Source: Aplysia californica
Taxonomy: Eukaryota
Direction of reading: 5' to 3'
DNA: 64,000 nucleotides
Assembly: GCF_000002075.1 (NCBI RefSeq)
Contig: NW_004797776.1
Location: 233,949 to 297,948 of the forward strand
Shown: positions 11,101 to 50,100 of the stretch, piece after piece
How the letters are laid out: the number at the start of each line of letters is the position of its first letter
Position numbering within the stretch: position 1 is the stretch's first letter
The notes under the pieces: generated by a model
Told to the model about the DNA's origin: nothing
Databases searched by the model: none
The model's input: the letters and a program-made list of their open reading frames with translations, nothing else
Made by a program: the position numbers and the translations under genes

Positions 11101-13139
11101 AGGGTTTGAATAGCAGAATGACTGAACCGTCTTCCTTACATACAGAAGTAGCTGCATCATTTTTGTCGGGATACAGATTAAAGGTTAGTTACTTTGAGAT
11201 AAAGGTAGAAGAAATAGACCACTGGCTCACTTCTTAAGACTCACTAACCCACCAATGTAATGGAAGGAAGTTGTGGAGATGAGAGTATTTGTTCGTAAAA
11301 CTAACTTAAGAGTATAAAATAACATACAGGTTAATGGTAGCTTGTCCCTGTTTGAAAAAAACTAGTATTTTTGTATTCTGTTTCCTTTTGTTTCATTAAG
11401 TGAAATAGATGGGTTGGCTAGCTTCCTTTTCTTTTCTCTTTTTTGTATGTGTGTGAACACTGATAGCTCTTGCGTCTCTTCTCTCCCTTTGTTGTTTCTG
11501 TCTGTCTGTTATTCTTCTTATCATCACTCATAGACTTGTCAAGTGTATGCGCTTCTCCTTTAGAGCTATTATTTCACTCTTCTCTGCTTTCAGGTTCATA
11601 TACAAACCATTGGCATTTTAGTAGCTGAGAAAACAGAACTGCAGTCCCAGGTGAACCAATCACAAAGGATAGCAGATCAACGTATAGGTGAGTCTGTGTG
11701 TGGGTTTGGGGTGATCTTTTTGTATGTGGATCTGTAGTCTAAGGATAGACTGAAATGATTAAAGGTGTAGGCTTGGGAATGACTGACTAAATGTGTAGGT
11801 CGAGGGTGGACTGAGTAAATGTGTAGGCTAGGGATGAACCGAGATGAGAGAACGTGTTGACGAAGGTGTGATAATGTGTTTGCACCGGCGTGTAGAGAAG
11901 TGAGTGAATGTGTGGATGACAGGTGTACAGTAGTGAATGAATGTGTGAGTGGTTGGTGGACCGAAATAAATGAATGTGTGGGCAGTGGGTGAACTGAAGT
12001 TGGTGAATGTGTGGGATAGTGGTGGACTGACTTGAGTGAATGCATGTGTGGGTATTTGGGGGAGAAAGGGNNNNNNNNNNNNNNNNNNNNNNNNNNNNNN
12101 NNNNNNNNNNNNNNNNNNNNNNNNNNNNNNNNNNNNNNNNNNNNNNNNNNNNNNNNNNNNNNNNNNNNNNNNNNNNNNNNNNNNNNNNNNNNNNNNGGGG
12201 GGCATGGATCTCGGTGAGTGATGATAGGGGACAAAGTGAGTGAATATGTAGGAGGAGGGTGGACCTAAGTGAGTCAACGTGTTGGTAAATCAGTAACTGA
12301 GATGAATGAACGTGTGTTTAGCAGATGGACAGGTGAGGGAAAATGTGGGTAGGGGGTAGATTGAATTGAGTGAATTTGTGTCTTTATGAATGATATTTGG
12401 TACTTTGTTGTACAAGTTGGTATGCGAATCTTGTTGGTTGTGCCAGTAGCTCAGTTGGTAACATGCAGGACAGTGTTGCGGATGACCCTAGTTTGTTTCA
12501 CCACTAGGGCATTCTTGCAATGTTGCTCTTGGAGGAGTTATCATAGTTCTCCACACACTTGGCTCAGTTTTTTTGGAGATGGGTGTTAAATTGGAAGTGA
12601 TACTTTTAATAGACTAATTGTGTTGAAAGGGATGTTAGACTTGTCATATCATACTTCTTTTTCTTGGAATTTTATTAAGTAGCCCTTGGGTTGTGTATAG
12701 GGAATTTTCATGGCTTTTCACTCACTTGGTTTAATCCTTTTGGAAGTGGACATTGAATCTGAGGTTGTGTGTCTCACATATTGCTGCAGTTTTGAAAGGG
12801 ATGTTTTGCTCATATTGTACTATCAAATTGCTCAGATTTTTATCTTTATTTAAAAGACAAATCTAATACAAGTAAAATGATGATCGTTATAATAATTTTC
12901 TTTCTTTTTTTTTTTTTTAAACTTTGCTGGGATTTTTATGTTTACTTTTGTTGCAGAGGAAATTGAGGAGCTCAGTGGTCGGTTAAAAGCATCGCGCCAG
13001 AGAGTATCAGATCTGGAGCGGAGTCTGTCCACCACCTCACAGTCTGGTCAGCAGCTTGAGAAGGTCAGTGATGAAGAGTGCAGGCACACACCTAGACATA
13101 TACTCACTCATTCACAAGCACACACACCACACACATGCA

Positions 13140-24600: not shown

Positions 24601-27600
24601 GTTACTGTGCTGGCTCTGAGTGAACTACTATAGGATGACTTACAAATTGTCAGTAAGCTGTTCAAATGTCTATAAAAGAAAAAAAAATTTTAAGGAGGAA
24701 GAAAAAACTGTTTTCTTCTTTTAACAATTGTACCTAATTTGTGTATCATCTCTTGCTTTTTAAAAAAAATTAGAAGTTGAATTTCGTCAACATATTTCTT
24801 GAACTCATGCAAACAATACCAAAGATTAAGAAAAGTACAATTTTTAACAAAGTCTAAATTTTGGTCTTAGTACATTTGAACAGCTGGGAATGTTTTTTTC
24901 TCCCTCCCCAGCTTTCGAGTGAGAGTGAGAACACCCAGGGCAGTGTGGAGATTCTCAACTCTCTCCAGAAGGAGAGGGACAGTCTGCTGGCGAGATTACA
25001 TCAGGTGAGTGGACAAATGTGTGATTGACGATGATAGAGAGAAACAGTCAGGTGTTAAGGTCTTTTAAGGTGAATAAAATAATGTGTTGAGAAGGAGCAG
25101 AAGAGAGAGCTAGAAGCATGTGGAAGAGAGAAATGGAGGGAGACAAAGGGAGAGAAAAGAGAAAGATAAAGCTGAAATATGATTTCAAGTTTGCATTATC
25201 AAGCACAACCTCTTAAGACTGGCTTTTTTATGTATCTTTACGAATAAGATTTTCAGAGTAGTCAGATAAGATTATTTTAAGCTAGATGCTAAGACCAAAT
25301 TTCATTTATCACTACATATTTTTATTTCTGAATGTTGTGGGAAGTAAGTAACACTGTCTATGCAATAACTTAAAGACCTATAGGTTGTTGGCCTGATCCT
25401 GGAGAGAAAAAAGAAAAAGGCAATGTGGTAAATTCATAAACTAGTGTAAGGAAAATATATAGGATAACAAATCAATAATGTCCATCTGTAGGGGCTGTGT
25501 GATTTGGATCTAAGATACCTGAGGCACTCCCACAACAGGTGTGGGGTTTGGATTAAGTGAGCTGAAGTTTGGGAACCTAATCAACGCTGATTATTGTTCA
25601 TTGCCCTAAGCTGATAAAACGCCTTTTTTTTTTTCATTTTTGGCACCAAATTTTTTAATTTGCTTCACCAATAGCCTGATCACCCCACTTTTCTGAAAAT
25701 ATCAAAGTTAAACTGTGACTAGTTTTTTAATAAATTAGAATACAAATTTTGGAAGAACACCTTTTCTTTAATGGTTACGGTGACAAAATTCCTTTTTTCT
25801 TGAAACTACTGTGAATGCATGCACGCACAAAAGACGTTTTGTCAGCTGGCGGAAGAACAGGCCACTTAAGTTTATCTCCCATAATGTCATTCCTGATGTT
25901 ATTTTTGTTGTTATTGTCTTATTATCGGACCACATTTTGTTCTTCCCGTCATCGCCCCATCCAGCATGAGGAATTGACGCAGAAGCTCCAGTCGGAGCGT
26001 GACCAAGTGACAGACCAGTACCAGCAATACACAGAGCAGCTCCGGCACCAGTCGCAGCAGGTCACACAGCAGGTACTCATTTCTGTTTATATGTACTCGA
26101 GGTTCTCATGTAGGTCCAATAAAGGGATACACTTTTGACTCCTCAAGGCTTTATACCTTTCGTATCTACCTGAAGGACTCTGTTGTTTCTAAAAGGTACT
26201 CAGTTTACCTAAACAACATATACTCTTTTATGTGACCACAATACACAGACTCACATCAGCACAATATATGCTCTTATGTGTACTCAAGATATGGTGGTTG
26301 GAGGGCGCCACTGGTAGGTCCTACTTCTTCTCTTTCCCTTTGTTGTTTCTGTCTGTCTTGCTCCTTCCCTGCCCTTCGTGAACATTATTGTGTCAATGTG
26401 CTTTTCTTTACTCAAACTCAAAGTGCTTGCTAACCCTCCGGGGCAGTGCTACTGACTGAAGTGTCTTTAGGCCATTCCCTAAGAGGGGAACATTAACATC
26501 TCGAGTTCTTATATGCAGTAGAATTGTAATTGTAAATGGGCTGATTCATCTATGTCATGTTCAACTGTGCCTGAACTGCAACAGGGAACTGCTGCTTTTT
26601 CTTTCCTAATTCTTAAAACTATCATAATTTTTCCTCTACTTCTTTTGTATGTTTGTCACACTCTTATGACCCGCTATTTCCGGGATGCCTTGAAAGTCGA
26701 AACAGACTTTGTGCTGTTGAAGCTAGAGAGGTGAGCTGAGTTAGTCTGATTCCCTGTAAAGTCTACTCTGTTGACATCCACCCCTTGGCGCTCATATGAC
26801 CTTATGCAGTTCCGAGCGCCGTAAAACCTCCACTAAAACAAACAAAAGTACTCACTTTCGTCAGCATGAAGCACTCTTACGTCTACATGAGCTTCTCATT
26901 TTTGTTTATGTTTCAGTCAGGGCACCCTGTCAGCTCAGTTGTTATCATGCTGAACTGCTATGTTTGATTAATTTTCCTGAACTTCGACTGTTTGGGGGTG
27001 TTTTCAAGGGTTTCCACCATTTGATTCTGTGCCATATGATACTGAAGTTGCATCAGATGTACCACCTCTGACATAACTTTACAGTGTTGAAAGAGCCATT
27101 AAACCTTCAGCATACCTTTCACATGGATCATTTGTAATGAACTTTGCTTCATCCGTGCTCTTCTCTTGAACTAAAAGACAGACAAAGCTCATGGATGGTT
27201 GTTTTGGTACCACTGGGAGATCTATTTCTTTACTGTTCCTCTGTTTTATATTTTGTTGAATTTGCTTTTCCTGAACGCGTAATGACCACTTCTGTGTGGA
27301 TGTGCATGTGTTTATTTTAAAAAATGTTTTAACAAAAGAAACCAACCTTGGCTCTAATTCACTGCTGATGTCCCTACCTTCTCAGGTAACAGTTCTCACT
27401 GAGGAGAGAGAGCAACTGCTGAACAAGCAGCATGAGCTAGAGGGCGCTGTGCACGAGTTGCAGAGGAAGCTAGGTGAGTGATGCTGCTTTGTTCTGGATA
27501 ATTTATGACTGTCACTTGTTATCACTGGACAATGTACTGCTGTGTACTGTTAAATGGTTTTTGACTGAATTAGAAGGTCTTAAAATTCTGTCGTCCTGCT

Positions 27601-30600: not shown

Positions 30601-33600
30601 ATATCATCAAACTTAAACGGAGATCTCTTTCAGAGAAACAAATGTATGTTCAGCGACTGAAATGTACGGTCTTGGCTCTTTTCATTGTTTTTTTCATGAT
30701 CAGGTCGTATCTTGTGATTAGTCTTACTTTTATGCGTGTTCTATGGTTGGTCACAAACTTTGCTCACTGTCAGAGACAGTGAAAGCTCTGTCCTGTAAAT
30801 CATAAGATCTGTCTGGGTATTTTTTAAGTGCAGTATATTTGAAGCCAGCTTTCAAGTTAAAAGTTGCACATTATAATGCTGTCAGTTATAATCATTATCA
30901 TGAAAAGTGGGCACTCTAGTTAAGTTTTACACTTTCACATCTTCTGTGTGTTTTTATTGTGCTAATTATGCCATAGGATAGTGTTGCTAATGTCGTCATG
31001 ACTTGCTATGTAAAGCAGCAGATCATCTCAAACTGTTCTCATCAAACATTTGTCATTCTCTTATACCTTTCAGGATATGATGGAGGCTTTGACTACTCAA
31101 AACAGTGAGTTACGAACCATGCTTATCAAGGCTACAGAGGTTAAGTCACCCTCAAGGTCAGAGAGTGCGGAGAACGGTGACAGTGAAGGAGAAGGACGCA
31201 ATGAGATTGTAAGTTGTCATTGTTTGATGTTGATTTTTTAAAGTTTTTATTGAAGTTTGGTGAATTTGGATTTGTTCTAGTTGAGAAGGNNNNNNNNNNN
31301 NNNNNNNNNNNNNNNNNNNNNNNNNNNNNNNNNNNNNNNNNNNNNNNNNNNNNNNNNNNNNNNNNNNNNNNNNNNNNNNNNNNNNNNNNTTCATCATCAG
31401 TTAACACACTCCCGCGGTATTCATGGCGAAAACACGTTTCCCGGCGCGCGCGCGCTGTACACCAACAGTACACACTAAGTGACCCCGGCACGTCTGACGT
31501 AATCGGTTGTTGATAAGATACGCATCTGGGCACAGACGCAGGATTAGAGTTAAGCCATTCCCAAAGGGGGGACATTTCTCGTTCAAGTGCACAGTAGAAT
31601 TGTAAATAGGCTGATCTAACAATATCATGCTCATGACTGTGCCTGAAGTACAACAGGGAACTGCTGCTTTCTCATTCCTAATCCTATCGTCATTTTCCTC
31701 TACTTCTTTTGTATGTTTGTCACACTCTTGTGACCCACTATTTCCAGGGTGCCTTGATAGTCGAAGCAGACTTTGTTCTGCTGAAGCTAGAGAGGTGAGC
31801 AGAGTAAGTCTGATTCCCTGTAAGGACTTCTCTGTTGACGTCCACCCCTTGGTGCTTGTATGACCTTATGCTGTTGCGAGCACCGTAAAACTTCTACTAA
31901 AAAAAACAACTTGAAATGGGGCTATAATTTTACACAGTGTGTGTCAATGCATTTACACTGCATTTGTTTTTATACACTTTACACATAGATATTTTTAGAT
32001 TTATGAGGACACTTGGTGATTTTCTTTTATTTACAGTACATTGAAACTTATGCTTTTGTTTCTGCGACACTGACCAAAGCTTAAGCTTTCACTGACACTG
32101 TCCGGTTGTCCACTTCCCCAGACTGGCGCTGTACAATGACCAGGACAGTAATCACGACGCTTCACACATGGACGCCGACAGCGCCTCTGTGTCGTCGGAC
32201 CAGAAGCACTCCCATCGTTCCCACGGCCACTCACACCACCACCCCCATCACAGCAACAACCACCACCACAACCACCATCACCCAGCTGACCCGTCATCCT
32301 CGTCTTTCCCTGCGCCCGCCGAAGAGGACCACACGGCGCACAAAATCCTCAGCCTGCTCACTGAGTTGGGACATTCGCACATGGTGGATCAGGTGCCACT
32401 CATAGACAGGAACTTCCTTCCCTGCAAGTTCTGCAAAGGGGCTGTGCAAATTGTTTAGTGAATTGCCTTCTGTTGGTGAGGGGGGGGGGGGCAGGGTTGA
32501 GAATGCTATCAGGCTTTCACATGATCATTTCCTGTGTGGACTTTTCTGTCAGGGAGCTGCGCAAACTGTGTTGTGGAACCTGGAGAGGGAGGAGGGAATA
32601 GGGTTGGAGGTGGTCGAACAGTAATTTATCTTCTTATGTAGTTGTCATTTTCTGGGGGGGGTTTTGTGATTGGACAGCACCTCTTTGGCTTATGTGGATA
32701 GAAAGGGGAGGTCTTGGAAGAAAGATCATTTGATGTTCTGTGTATTCAATAGATTTCACAGCTCCAGAAGGAATCCATAAGAATTGTGTAATGTTTTAAC
32801 CTGTGTGTGAAAGTGAGAATGTTGTAAACTGGCCCCCTTAGTGGTCACATTGAGCACTTTGATGGTCTGATCCTGTGGTGGTATGTGATCTAGTCGTTCA
32901 GCTGTTAGTCATCTTGTCACTTTTCGACCCGTGACTGTGGAGACCGTGCCTGGTGGTCTCTTGTTCTGAGTGGTGGGATTTCTTCAGGAGTAGAATGGTC
33001 ACCGATTTGTACAACGTGCTGCTATCTGATTGATTGGACATTTGGTGAACCAATGTATTCAAGATGTTTGCAAGATACCGTGATATCTTCCTCGGCCGGA
33101 GTATTTCTTTTCGTGTTTGGACAGTGCCCCTGATCCAAGGGCACGAGATACATCACTGTCCTAGTTTTCGCAACTCCAGTTTTTCGTTATCAAAAAAAGA
33201 ACATATCCTGAAGGAATGTAGAGTACGTTTTTGTACAAGTTTCAGGATGGTCAACCTCTCATTAAATGAAAGATCTGGACTAGTAGTTTTGTGCTGAGCC
33301 CGTCTTGGAGAATGCATAATTTCGACAGACCTACGAAAATCAAATTGCTCCACTGTGGTGTTCCTTACATGATTGAAGCTCTTAAGAAGAAATCATTATG
33401 ATTCGAGTCTGGAAAGGCAAAAGATTAGGAATTTTAAATGATTTATAAAAAACTGTGATAAATGACTGAGGACATTGTAGCTCGTTGAATATTTTTTATT
33501 TCTTTCTTATACTTGCTAAAGGAGGATACTTTTAAAAATATTTTTTGTGCTGTATTCTTCCCGGGGAAGATACTGCAAATTTGGTTTCGTTGGATTAAAT

Positions 33601-36600
33601 TTCTTCCTTGCTAGTTATTGGCCCTCTTAGTAGTCTTAGGAAAGTACCTCTTCATTTAAAAAATTTGTTTTAGTATGTATACAATGTGACCAACATGTAA
33701 TGATATTTTGCTCAGCAAATTTTGAAAATGAATATTCATCGGGAAAATCTTATTTTGTCTTTTTCGTGTTTGGATTTTAGAAGTAGTTTTGTGTAGTGGT
33801 CACAGCAATGTTTATTCCCCCCCCCAACCCGGGCCGACTCTCGTACTCCACACTCGGGTCATTGGTGAATGTCATGAGATTTTTGTTTCAAAAGTAAAAT
33901 CACAAGTAATGTCTGCTCATTTTGGGATGGGGCCATTATGTTTTAGAGTAGTATGAGACTAGAGCCGCTACTGGTGGTTCTGTAGTGACTCTGTCATTAT
34001 TGTAAGGCTAAGAATTATATCCGTCAGTGAAAAAATTTGTACATCAACCACTCACCATTTGTCTCTCATCTATAGCACGGTGTACTCACAACAGGTCTTG
34101 TAGTCCTCTGTGGATGTGAAGGTGGATTGACTTTTCGGGACGCAAGTCAAAATGTTTTGCCCTAGCTAAGTCACCTCATGTACACACCCTGTACCCAGCC
34201 GAGTTTTGCTATAACATCACTGTCAGCCGTGTCCATTCTGGATTTTTTCCCACATTGTGAGGCGGAGAATCGTGTGCACATGTGTGTTACTGAGTAGCAC
34301 ATGTATGGGAGAGTAGAGAACATAGGCCTATAATGATCAAGATCTCATGTGATGGTATCGCGCAAATGCTAATATATAATATATTATTCCTCAAGCAATG
34401 TGATGCTATGTTACTGTTTTAACTCCTGTGAGTGTTTTACTCTCATCTGTAGTGAACCAAGAGCTTGTATAGCTTGTTCTTTATGTAGTTATCCTGTAAT
34501 CTCCCCCACAAAGTTGCAGATAATCATCAGAGAATAAGTCCTGAATGTTTTAGTTCAAAACGGGGGGGGGGGGGGGGGATCTTATTGATCACACTTGTAT
34601 ACTCCATGGTGCCCATGTGCTGTGGGATTATTTAATAAGTAGCCAGGCATAAAACAAGAGCTGTGGGTGAGTGAGAGAGTGCGTGGGATGTCCTGTGTGG
34701 ATGTGTGACGTCAGCAGTTTGTTCTCCTGACCCTTTGTCCTGTGCGAGCTTCGTAGTTGGTGGAAGATGAGTGCTCTGATGGTGCACCTCCTAATATTCT
34801 ATCTTTTCAGTCCTTGTATACAGTGTGTACATATAATATTTATATGTGTATAAGAATACTGACCATGTTCGCTGTGTGTATGAATGTTTTGTGTCTGTTG
34901 TGGAGAGATGGTGAACATTCTTTACAACCTGTGGCTGCTGCTTCTGGTGGTCAGGCTTGTCAGAGGAGATGGAAAGTGTTGTGTATGGCTTGTTTATGTA
35001 TCTGCAGCTGTGAGGTTTATGTCTGCATCATTATAATATAATGTTTATCACCAACATTGTCTTCGTTATAGTTGTTCGTTTTATCTTTGTGTTTGTCAAG
35101 GTTGTGTATGCAGTTTTTGTGACTCTCCAGAAGTACTGGTCGATTCCTGCAAGTAGGTAAAGATGTGGACGCGTGCCTGAAATTTTTTTTCAGTGTGTAG
35201 GTCATTTCGTCTTTTCTCTGGTTACACCCAAGTCTCTGTGAGTTCAATACTGTTTCCAAGTTTGAGGAGTAGTAAAATCACTAATGAAGCTTAGAAATAA
35301 TTGTTAAAAAAATACAATTCAAGAAGAGAATTGATATTGTTCATTAATTCTTTGTTAAAGACGAGATGAGAGACTGGAATGAAATAAGAATGGGAAAGGG
35401 AAAAATGGGAACATCCTGATTGTGCCATCCAGTGCGAGTCAGCATAAACTGTTAAGACCCTTAAGACCCTTAAGTGTTGCTGTCCGAGTAAAAACTGGTC
35501 TGTTGGTGAGTGGTAGGCAGGTGCTTTCGTGTGGTTTGCTTTTCTTTCTTATAAAAAATCTGTTTTATCTTCCTTTTCTCTCTTAATTTTTTTTTTTGGG
35601 GGGGGGGGGTATGTTACTCTGTATTACTAACACCTCTAATTTTCAGCATTTATATTTAACCTGTTTGTGTTGCACATGCCGTAAACTCTTAACTTACACT
35701 GAACTGTTAAGACCTTTGAACCTTGCTGCTGTATCTGTAAAAGATGATCTGTTATGCTGATGTGGGAGGAGGGTAGATATTGTGTGCCATGCTCCACGGA
35801 CAAATCAAACTGTTTCGACTCTTTCTTTTTATATGAGTTAAACTTGCTTAAACACCCTGCTGAAGGATATTTGAGTTGTAGGAAAGTGCACTTCTTTTTC
35901 TGTTTCTTTGTTTCATTTATCTGTTTGTCTTGCTATATCCCAGCACTACTTATTCTATTAGATTTGTTCGAATTAGATTTAAACTATACAGATACCCCCC
36001 GGGGCGGTTCTACTGACTGAAGTTTATAGGCCATTCCCAAAGGGGAGACATTAACCTGTTCTTATGCACAGTAGTCAGTAGAATTGTAAATGGGCTGATT
36101 CATCGATGTCATGCTCATAACTGCCTGAACTGCAACAGGGAACTTCTGCTTTTTCTTTCCTAATCTTTACCATCGTCATTTTCCTCTACTTCTTTTGTAT
36201 GTTTGTCACACTCTTGTGATCCGCTATTTCCGGGGTGCCTTGATATATATAGCAGACTTTGTGCTGTTGAAGCTAGAGAGATGAGCAAAGTAAGTCTGAT
36301 TCCCTGTAAGGACTTCTCTGTTGACATCCACCCCTTGGTGCCCATATGACCTTATGCAGTTGCAAGCGCCATAAAACCTCTACTAAATCAAAACAAAACC
36401 ATACATACAACACAGAAATAGATTTATTGTGATTGTGTGTCTGTTGTTTTCTTTGTTTGAGAAAGGCCTGTTTTTGCCACTATTTATGGTTCTTTGTTGT
36501 CTATGACACTTTTAATATTGAATTGTATATGTTTAATGGAATGTATATACTTACGTAAGTCACGCTCGATTTGACCAGAAAAACACAGATCATTTTGAGT

Positions 36601-38620
36601 GATTTAATGACATTGTGTAAAGTTAATAAGGTTATGTCTCGGAAATATCATCTGGGTACTTGCTGCAATTGTATAGATCCTACCCAAATATGCAGGTAGT
36701 ACACTGATATTGCTGTGAGATAGTTGCTTGGATTAACTTATGCCACTGTTAGGACAAAAATTCAATCTTCACGACTGCCTCTGCTAAAACTGTACGGTTG
36801 CCCGAGAGGTGCAATGTCTGATTTGACTTCCATCTCTAGTAGGACTGAAGCAAGCAGATATCGACTCAGCAGAAACTCCCCCAACAAGCCACAAGCCAAG
36901 TTCAAGAACTCTATCAAAAGGATTTGAACCAAGGTCATTTGCCCTATTAGTTAAAGAATTAGAATGAAGGTCATTTGCATCATTTTGTAGTTTGGTACTG
37001 AGCCAACAGTGCACCCTGGGTAACTGTTGTCCTCCACTCACGTCGTAACGACACTTTGTAAAAGGATTTACATTTTATTATTTTCAGGCGAGTACATTTC
37101 ATTGTACCACCACCAGAGGGCATTGTTGCAGCAGCGAGAGACACAGAAGAACGACTACATTGCTCAGCTGGCCCGAGACAGGGAACAGCTACAGGTGAGA
37201 GGCAGGGTAGAGTAGTGTGGATGAAGTAGGGTGCATGGGATGAATGAAGTTGTTTGTTGTTCGGATGGGTAGATGTGGTGGTCATCGATTTTTCTGTGAA
37301 GTAAATACCCAGAAGGTTGACGTAAGGGCATAGTGGTACTGATATGGAAGAAAAAAAGAAACAAACATGATTGTACTATTGGCAGGGGCATGTCTTTACT
37401 AAACCACTCAAAGGAAACGTACACAAGGATAATGATAATGGAACGAAGGATCAGACCTATTATAGAGAGAAACTTAATGCAACATTATGCAGTAATTTTT
37501 TTTATTAGTTTGCTAGTTTGTAAATCTTGTAAGGGAGGACCCATTTGAAACCTGAAGAAGTCATGGGGAATGATGTACAGAAAAAAAAAGGGACGACATG
37601 GAATAATGTCATGAGGCTAGTCAGGATAGGGAAAGGTGGAAAGTGTTTGTTCACGGTCTATACCCTGGTGCAAGGGGAGAAAAGTAGTGATGATGATGAA
37701 GTTCCTGTTGTGCACATTGTCCACAGGACAAACTGGGGGAGTTGCAGGTTCTGGTGATGCAGCTCTTGGGGGAGAGGAACATGCTGCACAGCTACCACGA
37801 GGAGACCACAACTCACTCGCCACAGCACCACCACCCCGACATGGCTGTCGCACAGCAGCAGCGCCCACAGAAACAGCAGCACCAAGCTCTCAGCAACGGG
37901 ACCATGAACGCCTACGAAAATGGTGAGTGCTGCTGATATTGGAATGAGTTTTTGTTCTTGGAATTCTGTTTTATGGCAACGACCACGGTAGTTCATTTTT
38001 CTGATGGAATGTTTTGACCATTTTGTTCTTGCTTGATGTCTCTGAAGTCTTTCCAAGGCTTGCAGTTGGGCATTTGTTGAGGCAACATTGGGTGATTACA
38101 TATTAGATTATTTTTTTTATCTTTCTATCATCTTTTGGTTTGAAAGTCCGAAAATCTTTAAGGGTTTAAGTACTTCTGAACTATGACTATAGCAGAGCTA
38201 TTTGAAGAGACCGTTTGTTTTTTGTTGTTTCAATCCAAGCAGTATTAGTGGAAGAGGTTTGTTTTCTTTAGCATTAGATTTGTCTTCATTCTCAGATCTT
38301 CTCTCAGGCACCCAGCCCTGAATTGTATGAGCACACCTACACACAAACATGTGCACTTACACATACACACATGCTCACACACACTATCAATTTCTGTCTT
38401 TCATCTTGTATAGCGAGCTTGAGTTAAACATGTCAAACAAATTATTTGCTCTTTCATTTTTAGACTGGCCGGACTACACTAGCTCTGAGAGTGACACAGA
38501 CAGCGAAGTGGAGCCGATCGTTGGAGGGCAGCAGATGCCGGCCACGCCAGACTCTGAGATGACGCCGCAGTCCTCTCCCCCTGACTCCCCACGGGACGGC
38601 GAGGAAGTCGCAGCGCACAG
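2059..38620 (+). CDS. GOLGA2: Golgin subfamily A member 2 / GM130 orthologue, multi-exon gene span; first exon upstream of the window, 3' exons out of order, some middle exons missing
   Basis: Spliced translation contains GM130 hallmark segments: LKQFQ (N-terminal basic region), [88 protein letters not shown] (GM130 C-terminal domain) and a C-terminal CxxC...IV*. Exon phases are continuous from 2059 to 31208. Confidence 0.93.
2763..2839 (+). CDS. GOLGA2: GM130 exon ([26 protein letters not shown])
   Basis: polypyrimidine tract-ccag|...CG|gtgagt, 77 nt, phase 0-2, matching the next exon. Confidence 0.75.
4471..4534 (+). CDS. GOLGA2: GM130 exon ([21 protein letters not shown])
   Basis: ccag|G...GAG|gtaaac, phase 2-0; conserved STESL-QLS-Q-NGL motif. 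Confidence 0.9.
5425..5935 (-). mobile_element. tRNA-derived SINE
   Basis: Minus-strand head GGGGCTCTCGTGGATGAGAGGTTATGGTGTTCGCCTCTCA...GAGTTTGAATAC is tRNA-like with degenerate A/B boxes. 3' tail GCGCTCATATGGCCTTATGCAGTTGCCAGCGCCGTAAAAC plus an A-rich end is shared with other repeats here. Confidence 0.7.
7355..7411 (+). CDS. GOLGA2: GM130 exon ([19 protein letters not shown])
   Basis: tcag|TCG...GAG|gtgcta, 57 nt, phase 0-0. Confidence 0.8.
9919..9999 (+). CDS. GOLGA2: GM130 exon ([27 protein letters not shown])
   Basis: acag|GAG...CTT|gtgagt, 81 nt, coiled-coil composition. Confidence 0.85.
10788..10889 (+). CDS. GOLGA2: GM130 exon ([34 protein letters not shown])
   Basis: ccag|CGC...CAG|gtgagt, 102 nt, phase 0-0. 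Confidence 0.9.
11594..11687 (+). CDS. GOLGA2: GM130 exon ([31 protein letters not shown])
   Basis: tcag|GTT...G|gtgagt, phase 0-1; [10 protein letters not shown] is a diagnostic GM130 motif. Confidence 0.95.
11750..12380. repeat. degenerate ~33-bp tandem repeat interrupted by a gap
   Basis: recurring GAGTGAATGTGTG-G----GGGTGGACTGA units. Confidence 0.7.
12957..13063 (+). CDS. GOLGA2: GM130 exon ([36 protein letters not shown])
   Basis: gcag|AG...AAG|gtcagt, phase 1-0. Confidence 0.92.
13140..13178. repeat. (CA)n microsatellite
   Basis: direct inspection. Confidence 0.95.
15838..16240 (+). mobile_element. ~390-bp SINE-like retro-element, long family copy 1
   Basis: CCCCAGGGCAGTGCT...GGCCATTCCCAAAGGGG...ATATGACCTTATGCA-TT-CGAG-GCCGTAAAAC with (AAAAC)n tail; 6 alignable copies in the window. 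Confidence 0.85.
16965..17342 (-). mobile_element. long SINE-like family copy 2
   Basis: reverse complement of the family; flanked by TSD TGAGCATGTGT (16941 and 17344). Confidence 0.85.
18040..18545. promoter_or_regulatory. candidate intronic CpG-rich regulatory element (RFX X-box plus nuclear-receptor half-site cluster)
   Basis: GTCGCCATGGCAAC at 18176-18189; TGACCTTTGACCT at 18267-18279; AGGTCA at 18285-18290; CACGTG at 18294; CpG visibly denser than in the flanks. Confidence 0.45.
20168..20356 (+). mobile_element. ~180-bp short retro-element family, representative copy; others at about 3532, 3792, 4042, 15331, 15642, 16370, 18627, 19336, 29126, 35506, 47313 (+) and 57175-57320 (-)
   Basis: GTGGGTGGTTGGCGGGTGCTCTGGTGTGGTTTGC...GTTACTCTCTTGTAAC...ATATGACCTTATGCAGTTGCGAGCGCC...(TAAAAC)n; 11-13 bp TSDs visible at several copies. 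Confidence 0.85.
20590..20945. repeat. 24-bp minisatellite with alternating variants
   Basis: TGTGAATGTAGCTTCCAGTAGCAG alternating with TGTGAATGTAGCCTCC-GCAGGGA, roughly 13-14 units. Confidence 0.9.
21548..21637. repeat. compound (AG)n(TG)n microsatellite
   Basis: direct inspection. Confidence 0.95.
22930..22988 (+). CDS. GOLGA2: GM130 exon ([19 protein letters not shown])
   Basis: tcag|AAT...AG|gtaagt, phase 0-2. Confidence 0.85.
23838..23979 (+). CDS. GOLGA2: GM130 exon ([18 protein letters not shown]...[11 protein letters not shown])
   Basis: tcag|T...CAG|gtaagt, phase 2-0. Confidence 0.92.
24912..25004 (+). CDS. GOLGA2: GM130 exon ([31 protein letters not shown])
   Basis: ccag|CTT...CAG|gtgagt, 93 nt, phase 0-0. 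Confidence 0.88.
25965..26072 (+). CDS. GOLGA2: GM130 exon ([36 protein letters not shown])
   Basis: ccag|CAT...CAG|gtactc, 108 nt, phase 0-0. Confidence 0.88.
26293..26420 (+). mobile_element. ~130-bp related short repeat, representative copy; others at about 17838, 19950, 24035, 29052
   Basis: GTGGTTGGAGGGC-CCACTGGTAGGTCCTACTTCT...ATTATTGTGTC-ATGTGCTTCTCTTTACTCAAAC recurs 4-5 times. Confidence 0.65.
26434..26845 (+). mobile_element. long SINE-like family copy 3
   Basis: same consensus sequence and tail. Confidence 0.85.
27386..27473 (+). CDS. GOLGA2: GM130 exon ([29 protein letters not shown])
   Basis: tcag|GTA...G|gtgagt, phase 0-1. Confidence 0.88.
28397..28559 (+). CDS. GOLGA2: GM130 exon ([19 protein letters not shown]...[10 protein letters not shown])
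   Basis: acag|AG...AG|gtgagt, phase 1-2; Pro-rich hinge followed by QV-DN--L-R as in GM130. Confidence 0.9.
29388..29580 (+). CDS. GOLGA2: GM130 exon ([13 protein letters not shown]...[24 protein letters not shown])
   Basis: acag|A...ATT|gtgagt, phase 2-0; strongly conserved GM130 segment. Confidence 0.95.
30027..30140 (+). CDS. GOLGA2: GM130 exon ([38 protein letters not shown])
   Basis: ccag|AGC...GTT|gtgagt, 114 nt; NME----LQ-EQH motif. Confidence 0.92.
30420..30578 (+). CDS. GOLGA2: GM130 exon ([12 protein letters not shown]...[24 protein letters not shown])
   Basis: tcag|CTG...CAG|gtaaat, 159 nt, phase 0-0. Confidence 0.92.
31074..31208 (+). CDS. GOLGA2: GM130 exon ([17 protein letters not shown]...GEGRNEI)
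   Basis: tcag|GAT...ATT|gtaagt, 135 nt, phase 0-0; last exon before the 31290-31389 gap. Confidence 0.88.
31553..31905 (+). mobile_element. long SINE-like family copy 4, slightly 5'-truncated
   Basis: same consensus from GCCATTCCCAAAGGGG to the tail. Confidence 0.85.
32122..32458 (+). CDS. GOLGA2: GM130 terminal coding exon (LALYNDQDS...His-rich...[13 protein letters not shown]...[15 protein letters not shown])
   Basis: cccag|A, phase-2 acceptor; open frame to TAG at 32456-32458; TA-KI--LL segment and CxxC-G---V end resemble invertebrate GM130 C-termini. Confidence 0.88.
35995..36398 (+). mobile_element. long SINE-like family copy 5
   Basis: same consensus; approximate TSD AAACTATACAGATAC / AAACCATACATAC. 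Confidence 0.85.
37088..37194 (+). CDS. GOLGA2: GM130 exon ([36 protein letters not shown])
   Basis: tcag|GC...CAG|gtgaga, phase 1-0; matches the GM130 C-terminal-domain motif GEYI-LY--QR--L. Confidence 0.93.
37727..37922 (+). CDS. GOLGA2: GM130 exon ([21 protein letters not shown]...NAYEN)
   Basis: acag|GAC...G|gtgagt, phase 0-1; KL-ELQ-LV--L--ER motif. Confidence 0.9.
38464..38620 (+). CDS. GOLGA2: GM130 penultimate exon ([18 protein letters not shown]...EEVAAHR)
   Basis: ttag|AC...AG|gttaga, phase 1-2; its phase-2 donor fits the acceptor at 32122. Confidence 0.82.
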
Positions 38621-41600
38621 GTTAGAGAGGTTTGGGTTTGACTAAGGCTGGGGCCTTTCAGAGCTGTTGTAAACATGTGGTGGTTACACACACCNNNNNN
38701 NNNNNNNNNNNNNNNNNNNNNNNNNNNNNNNNNNNNNNNNNNNNNNNNNNNNNNNNNNNNNNNNNNNNNNNNNNNNNNNNNNNNNNNNNNNNNNTTTGAA
38801 TATAAGAATGGTTGAACTCAATTATTTTTGCTTTCAGGCATGTTTAGTCAGTTTTTATTTTACTGAGGCTAATTCAAATCTTGGTCAGGGCAGAGGTTTC
38901 CACTCCAGTTCCTGTGTTTTGAACGTCTTTTTGGACGGACTTCTGAACCATCGGTGCGACATGAACTATCACTGAGTTTTCTAGAGTTGGAGTCCACTTA
39001 AATTGAAAACAGTTAATCCGAAATTTAATCAGTTAATCAGTTAATCTCTGATTTTTTATTTTTTCTGTTTGAGCAAGCTCTCTAAACTAAAAACACAGCT
39101 GCTAAACCGAAGAAAATCCGGTGGTCCTGCAGATTTTGGTTGAAGCAGAGTTAACTGTATTCCTGTATCCATGCGCTCCCCTTCAACAGACTCTGTGAAT
39201 GTAAATAAACTTTTTAACTGAAAGGAAGTCATTTTTACTAATATGGCAAGTCGTAGTCAACCAACATATGTGTATATATATATATACACATGTGTATGTA
39301 TATGAAGCTGTGTCAGTATATACCAATATACATATATTGTTGCTGTTGTCTAAAAAGATCTGAGGACGGGAGTTGTGCCTTCAGAGTGACGTGGTACATA
39401 GTGAATGGAACCACGTCTTTGCCATCCTTCTATGTGGAATTGACATTGTCCACTGTGCAAGTTGCTCTTCTCTACATGATGTGTGTGTGTGTGTTTTGAG
39501 TGTGATTGTGAAAGTTGCAAGTTGTGAAGAGTGTTTGTACCTGGTACTTTAAAGTTTCAGGTTTCCGTTCATCAGTGATGGTGTGTGTATGTATGTATGT
39601 GTGCATATTCATAAAAGAAGCTCATGGCAACGTTATGTTGCTGGTGAAAGTGTATATGTTATTTTTGCATAGATTAGATCAGATGAAGGCTTACAATGTG
39701 TTTCATGGTAGTATTTATTTAGTACTTGGCATGGTTTTCTATGGAACATTTTTCAGTTTGATGCTTTCTTGGGTGGATAAACTTCAAGGCTGCTTTTCTT
39801 CATGATTCTTTTCTGTACGTATTCAGAAAGGAGAGGGAAAGGTGGCAATTGGAAGGGGAGATAAGATGCTATTTATTAACTTTGCATGCGTATCATGTCG
39901 TTTAGTAGGAAAGGGAGCCCTTGTACCATCGTTATCTTCTGATGGGATCATGTGAGTGAGCGACCTCTGCAGAAGTTTTCACTCACTACTGGCCTTATGC
40001 ACAAAGCGGAGATCTTCCAGTGGTCAGTTTATGTGAACGGACTCCTCTGTGCTCTATTGTCCTGTTCGTGTGAAGAAAAACTCCATGACTTTTGGCTGTC
40101 GTGATTTGCAGATGTAGTTCCTACTTTATGATGTAATGTGATGTCCCTTACCTCTATGTGGCATGTCGGTACCAGCTTGCAGATGTTTCTCGTGCTCCCT
40201 TCTCTTTTGTTCCTCTTCTGTTGCATGCTGAGCTTTGGGGCAGACAGATGGTGTATCTAGTTAGTTCTGTTTGTTTCGTCTTTTAGTTTCCTCGGGTATT
40301 CTACGGGTGGTTGATGGGTTCATAAATGTAGCATGCTCTTAGTTCTTACTTCTTTTTCAATGTAACTGTTACCCTGATCTGTTTCCTGGTGAAATGAGGC
40401 AGGTTCCATATATGGACCTACGATTTACTACAAGTGGAAGAAAGTTTTTGTGGTATGTAACCACCTTTGTCTTGATTTCTCCTCCAGATTGAATCAGAGT
40501 TACACTCAGTTAAAAAGCAAATAAGTTTTGTAATTTTCAAGTCATGTGTTTGTCTATTTGTTGATATTTCGGTTATCTCAATGAAATTTGTGACTGGTAT
40601 ATAGCTAGATATCATAGCATTCATGAAATTTTTTTGTTGACTGTGTGAAAAACTGTGGGGAGGGTGGGGGGGTTGCATGTTGTCAGTGTTCGACTTAATT
40701 CATGGTCTGCCTCTAGAATTACCTTTCCAGTATCCCCACCCTTGTTTTTTCCCAACTAGAATTTAAGTTGACAATTTTTCTTTTTCAACTCTTTGAAATT
40801 GATTTAGTTAAGAATGAGGTATTTATGGGAAGAAACATTTGCCCTCAAAGATGATGATTTTTTTCCCCTTTTCATTTCAGAAATTGCTGCTGGGCATATA
40901 TCAGATAACTCCACATATTTGTTTTTTGTTGTAATGATACCTGTTTGTCAAATCATCATCTTCGATAGTGCTTGGTCTGGAGGGTTTGCAATAACAAATA
41001 CATGTGTACCAAATACTGGAGCTCAGTCTTTTCCTATTGGGACCAAAATAAGGCATGCCACCGCGTTTTGCTCAGAATGTTTGTCTTATGAAGGAGTAAA
41101 ACGTGTTTTTGTATTATTCTGCTACTGTGTGCGCTCATGCATGTCATTGTATTTGTGTGGGCTAAATCTTTTCTTTGAATGTAGGCCTACTCACGTTGAG
41201 ACATTGCCTATCAACTGTCACGCATTCTACCTTATCCAATAGACATAAACCGATGTGTATGCCTTTGCATTGACAAACTTTCAATGTCACACACACTCTT
41301 TGTGGCCTATAAAACCTCAATTTTACAGAAGGTGGGAAAATGATTGAAGTTTGTGGTACTTCTGACCAGATCTTTTGTTCTCAACCTCTTGCGAAGTGGT
41401 CAGCGTGAAGGAAAGTCGTGCAGATTTTACAGCAAGATGTCGAAATGACTGAAAATTTTAGCCGCTCGTATTGGTCAAGTCGAAGCTCTCCTGTGATAAA
41501 AATATGTGCAGGCCCAACATTGAGCCGTAAAAAAAATGTGTTGCTAATTTTAGTTTCACAGATAGCAATCCTGATACCGAGGATATATTATATACATGAG

Positions 41601-42133
41601 TGAAGCATGGCTCTGTGTACATAGTGTACATTTTCGTGGGGGAGATTTTTTTCTTCAGTGCATGTACAGGTGTACACCATTTTATTTCGCAGTGCTAGTG
41701 TGCTCTTGGTTTTGTTTCGCTGATCAAGGGTACACTGTTTAGTTTCGCTGAATGCTGCAAGTGTATGCTTTTTCGTTTTCCATCTTTGTTTCTGCAAGTG
41801 ACTGTGTCTGTCCTTATGGCATGGACTTGGTTACTACTACCACTGCAAAATGTATTTCTTTCTTTCATTTAAATAGGATAAACAAATACTAAAGTATTTC
41901 GCCACTACTGAAGAATCTGTGTCTTTGTTTATTGTGTAAGTCTGTATATCTGTGTGAAAATGCAACAGAGTGGGGTCAGGGTGACTTGCTGGTCGAGCCA
42001 AGGATTTCACAGATTTTTGGATGTAGTATCATGTATGATCTAGATTGTGTTGATGGGGGCATAAAACACCTGTATTAAAAAATTTTTAAAGCAAGGATGG
42101 AGGCTGTTTGTTTTAGTAAAGAGAAACGAAGTG

Positions 42134-42948
42134 ATTATTCAGACTCGAGTCCGAATATGAAAAAATGTTATTCGGACTCTGATTCTTGTCCAGCATGACA
42201 TCACTTCCAACTTCCTGTGACTCGTGACTGCGGCTTCCTGTCCTGCCTCACTCGTGACTCGCCTCAGGCTGGGTAGAGACCGGGATCACTTCGGGCAAAA
42301 AGGCGTTTTGTGCAGGAGCCGAGTTTTAATCTTATGATGAATTTGAGGCCGGCCTGAAAAGTTATAGCGCTTCTAATAAATGTTTATTTGTCAAGAGGTC
42401 ATCAGAAGCAATTAAAGATGGCTCGTTAGCGTGTGTCGGGGTCGGATGGGCGGCCTGCACACGTGTGGCTGTGTGTGTGTCGGGGAGGGTGGTGGGCACT
42501 ATCGGTCCGGGCGTTGAACGTCGCATACACGTCAGTCTTTTTCCCCCCGGCAACTGATCATTATTACAATAATAATAAGCTAGTCTTGATGTAGATCTAC
42601 GTTATGAATTGTGCGCTGGTCTATGGAATCAAAAGTTGCTGTATGCTCAGCTCTACACAGCAACACAACTTTTTCTGGATAAACAGCTCATAATATGCAG
42701 GTGCCAGGTGGTCTGCTAATCTTCAATTTCACCTTTTTCTACAACAAAGAAAGTGGGAAACATGGGGGGGGGGGGGGGCGTATCAATGAGGCGGCGGGCA
42801 TCGGATCGGCAGAAAAGGTGGGGGGGGACTAAAAATGGCGGAAAATTGGAAGCACTGAACGTTAGAACTATAGAACGAAGACACTTCCTTTTTTCCGGAC
42901 CCGAGTCCGAATAACATTTTTTCATATTCGGGCTCGAGTCCGAATAAC
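42134..42948. mobile_element. TIR element whose ends are built from the palindrome TTCGGACTCGAGTCCGAA
   Basis: ~45-bp inverted ends TTATTCAGACTCGAGTCCGAATATGAAAAAATGTTATTCGGACTC / GAGTCCGAATAACATTTTTTCATATTCGGGCTCGAGTCCGAATAA; the same terminus occurs at 402-486. Confidence 0.7.
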
Positions 42949-46870: not shown

Positions 46871-47116
46871 TCAAGTTTTGATATAAGGCAAGTACAATTT
46901 CAGTAGTCCGTCTTTCCTCCTATTTGCTATGTCTGTCTCTCGCTCCTGGAGCACAAAGTGGGCATAGTCGCGGCGTTGTTTCACCTCCCTTGCACTCAGA
47001 CTTCTCGCCTCATCCACCGGAACGCGTGGCTGGGATGCTGTCGAGCCAGACTTGACCTTCACCTTCCGCTTTGGAATTGTGGTTGGGCGGCCATATTTGT
47101 CCAGTGTCTCCTTGGC
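46871..47116 (-). CDS. TTC28-like terminal coding exon (AKETLDKYGRP...LLKLYLPYIKT*)
   Basis: tcag|GCC phase-0 acceptor, open to TGA at 46873-46871. Confidence 0.82.
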   Translation of the reverse strand, partial: AKETLDKYGRPTTIPKRKVKVKSGSTASQPRVPVDEARSLSAREVKQRRDYAHFVLQERETDIANRRKDGLLKLYLPYIKT

Positions 47117-50100
47117 CTGAATTTGAAATACCAAAATCGCGGCATTATCACTAGAGCATTATTAATATTCTACTGTGTAGATACATTCCATTCAAATAAG
47201 AACTTCCTGCACAAGCACTAAAATTCGCACAGCCGCAAGCAGCACATCCATAAAAAAAACACAAATGTATGTCGGTCTTAAAGTTTTTTACTTTTGTGGT
47301 TTATTCATCAAGTGGGTTTGTGGGTGTGATGGTGTGGTTTCCTCCATCTTTCTGATTAAAACATCTAATTTATCGTTATCTCTCCTACTCCTACTTCTTT
47401 TCTTTGTATGTTACTCTCTAGTCACACCTCCAATCTAAACTTATGTGATCTATTTGTGTTAAAAGTGCCGCAAAGACAACTAAAACTAAAATTAAAAGAA
47501 GCAGTTTTGTTGAAGAAGTATGTTAACAACTTAAAATATTACTTACAGTACCTTATGTCATGCACACCCACCACACAAACTCTCTTAAAGCAATGTTTAG
47601 GCCTACTGATATTCCAAAAAATGTTTAAAGCAAAATTGTCAACATACATGTATTATAAAGAATTTCAAAACATACCTGAAAGTAAATAAAAAGATCTGAC
47701 AAAAAAGAACAAACTATTAACTAAGAACACAGGAGAGAAAAAAACAGCTAAATATATCTACAAAATCTTGCAAATAAGTTTATTTTCGTCTCATATATTT
47801 AGAAGCAATTGATTTAAAAGAAAAGTCTTGTAAAAAAAAAAAACCCCACTAAAACATAGAAAACACCAACAGCGAATCTAATCCTAATAGTCCAATTGAA
47901 AGCCAGGGAGAAAAAAACTTAAAAGCAAACAAAAAGGTGGAAATGTTAAAATTATGTTTCTTTAACAAGAAATAAAAAAGAATTCAGATAGATTTTTTTT
48001 TAAATGGCAAAATGATAAAAGTGGTAGGTCTATTTCAAAGAAAAATTTGAAAGATGTCAGAGGTAAGCTACACAGAGATCTAAATAAACTTAACTGTTCT
48101 AAAACACAAAATAAAAAAGCAAACACTGGGTTGCTGATTTCTGTACTTACCTCCTCATCAGTCTATTCACGAAAGATACCAGAAAAAATAAATGAATTAT
48201 ATTTGGGAGACTATTGTAAACTAATTTTCAATCATCAAGGTACTCCAGGTAAAAAGCAGAAAGTTCGCCAGCATTCTGTCAAATTTTCATAGATGTTTTT
48301 CAATTAGATTGACATCCTTACAGTTTACAAGTGTACGGTTTTGTACTGAAAATGCATGCATACTAATAATACTGCTTTGTGTGCTTTATCTATGCTATAG
48401 TCCGGCAATAACAACAACAAAAAGAGACATCAAACATCCATGTAGAAATAATATGTGAGGCAGCCTGGTGAAACCAGGCGCTCGTCGAAATACCGGTAAT
48501 GATAATTGACGAAACGGGCATTTTTTCCATCGGTTTGGAAAATTTTAATAGAATTTTCGTTTTTTTGGCTCAATGCCTTTAATATCCATTTAAAAACACA
48601 TTTTTATGTATGGATTTTACTGAAAAACCCAAAACATGACCAATCACGTTCAACGCTGTCCTCTCAACCGCACCACAAGGAAAAACCACTCCAAGTTAAA
48701 ACACAACACAAACAGAGGCAATTATGTCATTTTTTACGGCAAAATGAAAGACGACAGACAAGAAACCTGATTGATTAACTAACTCCCCTTTGCTTCCCCA
48801 CCCTGCTTCTCTTCCCTTCCGCCCCTCGATCCTTTCATATAAAAGAAGTCACTCATTTCATAAAATCAATTTAAAAAATCATTTTCTGGGCAATTTGAGA
48901 TTTTCCCGCATTTGCATTCCTAAACCATTGTTCTATCATTTGGCATTCAAAAACAGCTCGAAAAAAACCACCCACCTGTGCAACAACTGTGGTCTGGTGC
49001 CAGGTGCGGGCTCTCTCCAGGTAGTCTTGGAACTCTTCACTCAGGTTGGATGAGCTGACAAAATTAGAAGCAAAATCGAGGGTAACAAAGGAACAAACTT
49101 TGTCACCACTGCAGTACAGTGGGTGCCGCATTCAACGAGGTAACATTCAACGAGGTAACATTCAACGAGGTAACATTCAACGGGGTAATATTCAACGAGG
49201 TAACATTCAACGAGGTAACATTCAACGAGAACTCGGCTCTGACGAGGCAATCCTTAATCCCCGATTTTTTCCTCTCTATACCTCTCTGTAAATGTATGTC
49301 GGCTCCAACGAGGTTGCAAACAGACCGAAGTCGCTTTCAACGAGGTGATAACCAAATAAAAGCAATTGGCGGCCCTAAAAGCGAAGAATTTTTCTCCTTT
49401 CCATCTCACGCGAAGCACAAGGCCAATCATCGATTCCTAACACAGTGTGTTGCTGGATCTAGTGTGCCTCGTAATATGGGCCCCAAAGCCAAGAGGATGA
49501 GCGAGGGTTAGCCTACGGTAGGGATGGGAGGAGGCGGGTGGGAACGTGATGCAGGTTGTGTGAAACTGGATGAACTCTGGATGGGTAGGTCTAGATCGAG
49601 ACCTTCATTTTTTTCAATTTTCTTTTCTTCCCCAGATCAGAAAATCCAAGCTCCCGCCTTTACTTTATGTAGATATCTGCTAGGCCTAGATGTGAGAGAG
49701 TATGTTTCCACACGAGAAGTGTTCAGTAAAAAAAAATATTTGACAATGCAGAAATGACGGTCAGATCACAACTCAAACACGTGCACATTGATGCTGTTTG
49801 AGATTTTCATCATCAGGGGGAAAAACTGTAGTAATTACTGGTATGGGTAGGCCTACATCCTATAATATAATAACTTGTCTCCTTTCTTTACTTTAGCCTT
49901 AGTCACGTTCAACCAGAGGTCGGATCCAACGAGGAAAACAAGCCAGTCCCAGCAACTTCGTTGAATGCGACACCCACTACTATTTTGTCATTTAACCAGA
50001 ACTTCATTTGGCTTTACCTAAAAAATTGCGATATCAAACTGACCCACTATGACATTGTGTAAAAATAATCAGGGTAAAAGCTCATTACATAATTGATATA

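Follow-up and report, generated by a model that had tools for sequence, protein, structure and literature searches.

The scrambled 3' exons of a GM130/GOLGA2 gene in the Aplysia californica assembly are almost certainly those of one ordinary single-copy gene, misassembled by a chimeric join between positions 36439 and 36440 that is likely an artefact of the library or the assembler. All positions refer to the window, the whole stretch of 64,000 nucleotides that was analysed. We draw this conclusion because in read contigs block 36440-38694 is preceded not by the 3' UTR but by the sequence of C2986 (4,171 nt), a contig left unplaced in this assembly, because the linear mRNA has its exons in the same order as the homologues, and because depth is that of a single-copy region. 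Misassembly was one of the readings offered in a preliminary description of this locus, and it is the one backed by C2986, the RNA contigs, the homologues and the absence of a bridging contig in four runs.

Exon layout and identity of the gene

The preliminary description had reported a permuted exon order within an ungapped contig, which is true to the sequence as assembled: the exons and phases are as claimed, and 31390-38694 contains no N and is flanked by two gaps of exactly 100 N (Table 1). The terminal exon starts behind an AG acceptor and its frame +1 translation is LALYND...[11 protein letters not shown], the three exons that follow it in the assembly have AG/GT ends and open frames, and the 38620 donor joins the 32122 acceptor in frame, as had been proposed. 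The UTR-like sequence noted downstream of the terminal exon is present, but it is about 4 kb long where it meets the join, rather than about 3 kb, and most likely continues in 38795-~41900. Exactly two coding exons are absent from the window, both of which lie on C2986, at 668 and 1396.

Table 1. Features of the permuted 3' region, in window coordinates.
Feature	Position	Strand	Remarks
GM130/GOLGA2 coding exon	31074..31208	+	last one properly placed; phase 0 donor; first C2986 exon comes directly next in the protein
100-N gap	31290..31389		probable true place of C2986 1-1917 (two exons) and window 36440-38694
High-copy element, last 164 of ~850 nt	31390..31553	+	terminal inverted repeats flanked by TTAA; contig starts inside it
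Dispersed SINE-like repeat copy (family D3; label by appearance)	31554..31906	+	in last intron
Terminal exon, coding part	32122..32458	+	ends [11 protein letters not shown]; single match in assembly
3' UTR, first part	32459..36439	+	X10 RNA-type contigs in pieces, 32119 to 36104; no AATAAA
SINE-like copy	35995..36398	+	approximate target-site duplication; not the breakpoint
Chimeric join	36439..36440		left, 3' UTR; right, intron upstream of 37088 exon
Misplaced block	36440..38694	+	second haplotype of C2986 1918-4171; 98.9% identical, last base shared
Coding exon (GEYISLY...)	37088..37194	+	Pfam GOLGA2L5 457-490
Coding exon (DKLGELQ...)	37727..37922	+	AG/GT ends, open frame
Penultimate coding exon	38464..38620	+	spliced to 32122 in RNA contigs, two studies
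100-N gap	38695..38794		read contigs have at least ~700 nt ahead of 38795 that 36389-38985 lacks
Likely distal 3' UTR of GM130 gene	38795..41900	+	poly(A)-library read pile, + strand, 41368-42200

All correctly framed exons are 100% identical to the protein record P0001, whose sources call it golgin subfamily A member 2 [Aplysia californica]. Three of nine exon translations score above the curated 29.2-bit cut-off of Pfam GOLGA2L5 (PF15070), a coiled-coil region, namely those at 29392 (75.2 bits), at C2986 1398 (51.8 bits) and at 37090 (34.1 bits), with an E value of 1.9e-8 for the 37088 exon; the other six have no such match, and the terminal exon has no Pfam match at E<=1. The best homologues are named GOLGA2 or golgin A2 and are collinear with the corrected gene. 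The C-terminus [14 protein letters not shown] is common to other gastropod homologues, its conservation being seen among molluscs only. According to PMC2712994, the C-terminus of GM130 binds GRASP65 in mammals, where this binding takes place at the cis-Golgi. The gene appears to differ in nothing from GM130/GOLGA2; only its assembled order does.

Exon order in the mRNA and in homologues

Linear transcripts with the conventional order were found in two studies. Single RNA contigs from runs X11 (3,273 nt) and X19 (2,446 nt) each run from a C2986 exon through the exons at 37088, 37727 and 38464 to the terminal exon at 32122, and thus contain the 38620->32122 junction that had been suggested as an RNA check. 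The kind of library was guessed or unrecorded for these two runs and for X5, X6 and X10; among the 24 runs listed, 21 of which have an unrecorded library, none is labelled as long-read and none is on record as RNA. In X10, the final 534 letters of a 3,233-nt contig correspond to 32119-32654. Circular RNA leading from the terminal exon or UTR into 37088 was not seen in these contigs, which are blind to low-level circles, and in both RNA contigs it is the C2986 exon that leads into 37088. In the raw poly(A) run X21 the exons had almost no depth and no splice joint was listed, so that this run carries no information on splicing.

The same order holds in other species. Of 22 homologues examined, 20 match both the 37088 exon and the terminal exon, and in all 20 the terminal exon comes second; a C2986 exon lies directly before the 37088 exon in 21 of 21; exon 30029 was covered in this comparison by tblastn. 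The claim that the GEYI-LY segment precedes the GM130 C-terminus is borne out by these 20 homologues, in all of which, as in the RNA contigs, the C-terminal tail is the last coding segment. Together with the GOLGA2L5 match of the 37088 exon, this agreement means that the order is not due to chance. The collinear sequence is also present in two public protein records.

Read contigs leave the reference at 36439|36440

Similarity between the window and C2986 begins at 36440, 41 nt 3' of the SINE-like repeat at 35995-36398, which rules this repeat out as the breakpoint. The earlier argument that its target-site duplication speaks against a chimera at the repeat therefore stands in part: the duplication is there in approximate form and the repeat is not the breakpoint, but the contig is still chimeric, 41 nt further on. 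On the right side of the join, a 1,095-nt contig from X2 departs from the window at 36436, and its next 27 letters equal C2986 1887-1913; contigs from X1, X5 and X11 also run past that point, with 27-28 letters unlike those of the window. The left side is seen in X6 alone, where a 117-nt contig matches 36389-36439 and then continues into 38 other letters. The right-hand X6 contig ends at 36436 with no run-on letters, and does not itself give the C2986 path. On each side of the join, then, reads part from the reference at a single position.

No contig spanning the join was found in any of the four runs examined, where non-bridging records explain the full depth of bin 36389-36475 (contigs only). 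For X1, X5, X10 and X21 the listing covered 24 of about 81,800 pieces, which does not exclude bridging records there by sight; X2, X11 and X19 had no record over 36389-36435 at 96% likeness. The sequence of the join occurs once in the assembly. As the DNA evidence consists of assembled short-read contigs, it shows presence and not absence. The break in support within 32458-37088, and a single copy in the order 31208, missing exons, 37088-38620 and 32122, which the preliminary description had named as marks of an assembly artefact, were both observed, through short-read contigs and not long reads.

The remaining ends were searched in the same data. No DNA contig seen bridges 38694 to 31390 or 36439 to 38795, and no other contig reaches past 38694, the base at which C2986 also ends. 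Searches for a contig that carries on from 31289 or 36439, or from the beginning of the 38795 block, found none; three of them scored 40 each of 1179, 357 and 963 candidates, and a pattern search gave 0 matches. A 19-nt motif from the bases before 38795 has no match in the assembly. The ~850-nt element in which the contig begins has many copies (633 candidates, 40 of them scored), and 7 that were compared are 92.7-98.4% alike. An attempt to link 38694 to this element at 31390 gave no convincing match, the best for the last 95 nt against the 7 copies being 22 of 25 nt, in a flank. The two SINE-like copies flood the joint and loose-end tables of the read contigs.

C2986 is the other haplotype of the misplaced block

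C2986 is 98.9% identical (2237/2262) to 36436-38694, ends on the same base as the window block and carries both missing exons upstream in normal order. At 37502, 37514 and 37565, C2986 alleles account for 11.8 of 21.5 (X1) and 11.6 of 24.9 (X2). With contig depth as a rough proxy that gives no copy number, mean depth in X1 was 21.4 outside, 20.0 in 32317-35333 and 19.4 in 36627-38781, and in X5 it was 67.9, 72.3 and 66.9, respectively (from the 19 unique bins among 30, after removal of 11 that were repeat-driven). Because depth is flat and the window and C2986 alleles occur at about 1:1 in one sample, C2986 is the other haplotype of block 36440-38694, and a paralogue is ruled out.

Discussion

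With the false join removed, neither duplication nor trans- or back-splicing is needed to explain this locus. The true order would run from 31208 through the C2986 exons, 36440-38694, a repeat-containing intron and 31390-36439 to at least 700 missing bases and then 38795-~41900, this last part probably being joined to 36439 across the missing bases, a stretch bridged by no DNA contig seen; the 3' UTR would then measure about 8 kb, with its end near 41900. Normal cis-splicing would serve such a gene. The scaffolded haplotype is the one with the false join, whereas the haplotype whose upstream path is correct was left out as C2986. The assembled contig would be a circularly permuted fragment no shorter than 7.3 kb, or than about 8 kb if the remainder of the 850-nt element is counted. 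A fragment whose end is joined to its own start in the same orientation, and which is opened at a repeat, would look like a junction from mate-pair circularisation, and mate-pair libraries are described as circularising fragments and as producing junction and chimeric reads (PMC3441570; 10.1101/025650). What is described in those papers is neither this assembly nor a permuted contig, and within a misassembly this source of the chimera is the weakest step, for which we regard the case as evenly balanced. Alternatively, the chimera could come from a slip of the assembler, or from PCR that fused two TG-rich ends, which agree at 6 of their last 10 positions. The case shares with other chimeric short-read joins that leave an unplaced haplotig the departure of read contigs from the reference at one point, a contig start within a young high-copy repeat, and a common last base of the two haplotype contigs.

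It is very unlikely that the join is instead a real rearrangement private to the animal that was assembled, namely a tandem duplication or DNA circle of ~8 kb with the last four GM130 exons that was present in one haplotype or some cells and dropped by contigs. A real tandem duplication of the 3' block (unit 36440 ... 36439) in one haplotype of that animal, collapsed in the assembly and with C2986 as its first copy, would produce the same end-to-start, same-strand geometry and a near-identical second copy of 36440-38694. However, the approximately twofold depth proposed as a check for a collapsed duplication did not appear in the runs examined, the ratios over the unit being about 0.9-1.06 in X1 and X5 contig depth; alleles are at about 1:1 with a summed depth near that of the flanks; contigs from X1, X2, X5 and X11 pass 36440 without the break expected from a second path; four of four runs have no bridging record; and the terminal exon, UTR and join were each found once in the assembly. 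We consider such a duplication highly improbable. A rare molecule in the sequenced tissue, arising by somatic duplication or as an ~8 kb extrachromosomal DNA circle, would share the geometry of a circle and, as rare variants drop out of contigs, its absence there proves nothing; yet nothing positive points to it, library chimeras look identical and are a mate-pair product in the works cited above, and we hold it to be extremely unlikely.

The chance that the genome is ordered as assembled, with the mRNA made by trans- or back-splicing from 38620 to 32122, is practically negligible. This splice junction does occur in RNA contigs, and no DNA contig seen joins 38694 to 31390, but the permuted order has as its sole support the join at 36439|36440, which read contigs contradict. 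In addition, the linear RNA contigs begin far upstream and reach 37088 by way of the C2986 exon rather than the UTR, and the homologues are collinear.

Misassembly of this kind has consequences for annotation, as it splits one gene across a scaffold and an unplaced contig. The two resulting protein records, P0027 (1,045 aa, on a contig of 601,795 nt, as long as C506) and P0001 (731 aa, on a contig of 4,171 nt, as long as C2986), are 99.7% identical over 731 aa and can be misread as a gene duplication. For reads mapped to this scaffold, the normal last splice would appear as a back-splice, giving a false circular RNA, two exons would be lost and the long 3' UTR would be cut in two. The causes of false back-splice junctions listed in PMC8513298 include genomic tandem duplication, trans-splicing and template switching; our case looks the same as such back-splice or "tandem RNA" false positives when mapped, whereas its cause lies in the reference sequence and not in the RNA or genome. 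Our literature search, which did not combine gene and species, found this locus in none of the titles or abstract openings listed, and we make no claim that the case is unreported. Neither a contig free of N nor an undamaged target-site duplication shows that a locus is correctly assembled, and a search for unplaced haplotigs settles such cases quickly. The scrambled exon order is thus not real biology, and the finding is of little biological import and of some practical use as an annotation trap.

Exon order of the GM130 gene in the assembly

Between about 2059 and 31208 the + strand of the window carries a GM130/GOLGA2 gene whose exons there follow protein order; its introns hold degenerate tandem arrays (24-nt and 33-nt units, at 20588-20945 and 11809-12379). 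Pfam, homologues and the tail place the A. californica gene in this family. In mammals, GM130 binds GRASP (PMC2712994). Contig 31390-38694, with no internal N and a 100-N run on each side, carries the terminal exon ahead of three others (Table). The window sequence bears out the exon order, splice ends and frames of the preliminary description, including the preserved reading frame between donor 38620 and acceptor 32122. A histidine-rich tract is encoded at 32200-32290 in the terminal exon, immediately ahead of the conserved tail; the proteins P0008 and P0011 likewise have His tracts, which are shorter.

Table. Exons and SINE-like copies of the GM130 locus
Feature	Location	Strand	Remarks
Terminal exon	32122-32458	+	AG acceptor, open frame; first in contig 31390-38694
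Exon	37088-37194	+	AG/GT ends, open frame; placed after terminal exon
Exon	37727-37922	+	AG/GT ends, open frame; placed after terminal exon
Exon	38464-38620	+	AG/GT ends, open frame; placed after terminal exon
Exon	C2986 668-806		missing from window; upstream part of C2986
Exon	C2986 1396-1578		missing from window; upstream part of C2986
SINE-like copy	15840-16232
SINE-like copy	16973-17350	-
SINE-like copy	26430-26842
SINE-like copy	31554-31906
SINE-like copy	35995-36398
SINE-like copy	53724-54086	-

An unplaced contig locates the break

A genome search with 37000-37300 returned two places, the window and C2986, an unplaced contig of 4,171 nt. C2986 1914-4171 is identical to window 36436-38694 at 2237 of 2262 positions, with the final base common to both, and base-by-base comparison put the first shared base at 36440; aligning C2986 to the window gave no unique counterpart for its bases 1-1913. 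The two exons of C2986 fit exactly between the 31074-31208 and 37088 exons (residues 315-359, 360-405, 407-466 and 468-502 of P0001, a 731-aa protein record). Shared sequence begins at 36440, and the assembly has a single full match each for the terminal exon, for the join 36439/36440 and, among the 40 scored of 1179 candidates, for the UTR; the break is therefore at 36439/36440. The target-site duplication noted earlier at the SINE-like repeat is intact, but it does not argue against a chimeric join, since the break lies 41 nt further 3'.

Read contigs, depth and alleles at the join

Read contigs of eight sequencing runs (24 were found) were compared with the window. The X2 contig fits 36436-37500 and then runs on for 27 letters equal to C2986 1887-1913. 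Contigs of X1 (27 letters) and X5 (28), and a low-depth intronic contig of X11 (28), also diverge there; the comparison with C2986 covered X2, the other run-ons being known just as unlike the window. A left-hand X6 contig fits 36389-36439 before 38 other letters, and its right-hand counterpart ends at 36436. Junction-bin depth equalled the sum of non-bridging records (8.18, 41.1, 2.0 and 0) and no contig bridging 36439/36440 was found in the four runs with full junction-bin accounting; other runs were judged from the records listed. X2, X11 and X19 have no records over 36389-36435, which does not fit neatly with a misjoin.

Contig depth, a rough proxy, was averaged over the 19 unique bins that remained of 30 once 11 repeat-driven ones had been set aside. 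Mean depth outside the contig and in its first and second parts was 21.4, 20.0 and 19.4 (X1) and 67.9, 72.3 and 66.9 (X5), so that the excess expected of a tandem duplication did not appear. C2986 letters at 37502, 37514 and 37565 account for 11.8 of 21.5 (X1) and 11.6 of 24.9 (X2); a single sample thus has both versions about 1:1. X1 and X2 come from the same sample, possibly the assembly's source, and so do not count as independent, whereas X5 and X6 represent different samples, from a second study. Inside a repeat at 37600-37700, contigs of X2, X6 and X1 depart from the window: some 346 letters ahead of 37634 differ from it, perhaps because of an insertion allele or because they belong to a different copy of the repeat.

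Transcripts and homologues

The 38620-32122 junction, proposed earlier for an RNA check, was seen in one contig each of X11 (3,273 nt) and X19 (2,446 nt), spliced at GT..AG and linear from a C2986 exon end through 37088, 37727 and 38464 to the first letters of 32122 (different studies, library kinds unrecorded or guessed). A 3,233-nt X10 contig has 32119-32654 last, after 2,699 letters; no repeated exons are needed to explain it, because these do not exceed the roughly 2,800 upstream coding bases in P0027 (1,045 aa).

A search with the C2986 exon among longer proteins gave 26 matches among 43 candidates, and order was compared in 22 homologues >600 aa. The C2986 exon directly precedes the 37088 exon in 21 of 21, and the 37088 exon precedes the terminal exon in all 20 matching both. 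The best match is 100% identical, and its source databases call it golgin subfamily A member 2 of Aplysia californica. The cluster to which it belongs holds two records, one on a contig of 4,171 nt and one on a contig of 601,795 nt, the sizes of C2986 and C506. P0001 and P0027 differ at 2 of 731 aa and are likely one gene, falsely duplicated in databases. Both are collinear; because both contain exons missing from their own contig, annotators likely filled these in from transcripts.

Origin of the permuted order

The adjacency at 36439/36440 is false, depth is single-copy and the mRNA is linear. We consider it nearly certain that the permuted order is a misassembly and no real feature, and that the gene is collinear with normal cis-splicing. 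Of the options raised in the preliminary description, misassembly stands, the join being contradicted by read contigs. The other two fall: at this locus, the tests that define a collapsed duplication and a trans- or back-spliced gene came out negative. A private tandem duplication is very improbable, a rare somatic circle or duplication still more so, and trans- or back-splicing from the genomic order as assembled the most far-fetched.

The contig may be a circular permutation, in which the end of a fragment was fused to its own beginning in the same orientation and the ring was opened within a repeat. The circularised fragment would comprise 7,305 nt plus the portion of the intron that is missing from the assembly, which is 688 nt or more if the ~850-nt element described below is whole. 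A mate-pair circularisation junction would fit the permuted shape; in such protocols fragments are closed into circles and the point of closure is sequenced, as PMC3441570 and 10.1101/025650 describe for the method in general, not for the libraries of this assembly. About as likely would be an error of the assembler or a chimera formed in PCR, in either case between the TG-rich ends, which are alike at 6 of 10 positions with no exact overlap at the join.

Contig ends and repeats

Bases 31390-31553 are the 3'-most 164 nt of an element for which a genome search gave 633 candidates, so that it is high-copy. Seven copies examined are ~850 nt long and 92.7-98.4% alike, with inverted ends and TTAA flanks. 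The element, for which 'piggyBac-like' would be a tentative label, is young, with terminal inverted repeats and at least hundreds of genome copies. The copy here seemingly lies within the leading part of a SINE-like repeat. At the other end a repeat likely begins near 38690, because DNA contigs of X1, X2, X5 and X6 likewise stop 8-44 letters past about 38690; none of the DNA contigs examined links 38694 to 31390.

The ~400-nt SINE-like repeat has an A-rich tail and at least six window copies, 84-91% alike. The family is likely transcribed, because at its tail many reads from the poly(A) library terminate in A.

The 3' UTR and implications for the reference

The 3' UTR of the GM130 mRNA is probably some 8 kb long and interrupted in the assembly by the false join and a gap, although no contig bridges 36439 to 38795. 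X10 depth over 38817-41841 (26-32) is similar to that over 32.1-36.1 kb (16-44), the raw poly(A) run X21 shows a + strand pile at 41368-42200, and 32459-36439 contains no AATAAA. Ahead of 38795, an X11 contig carries 698 letters and an X6 contig 702 that are absent from 36389-38985; a motif from these letters had no match in the assembly. The putative UTR (32459-41900) includes a SINE-like copy, and small + strand piles at 34472-35333 may mark 3' ends formed further upstream or reflect priming within the transcript. On the minus strand, open frames at 46880-47120 and 48975-49055 (…RRDYAHFVLQERE…) look as if they ended a convergent gene, as its last exons.

False-positive back-splice calls are a known kind, and those described in PMC8513298 have other causes, whereas the GM130 case would arise from the reference. 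On the present reference, the normal 38620-32122 splice would register as a back-splice.
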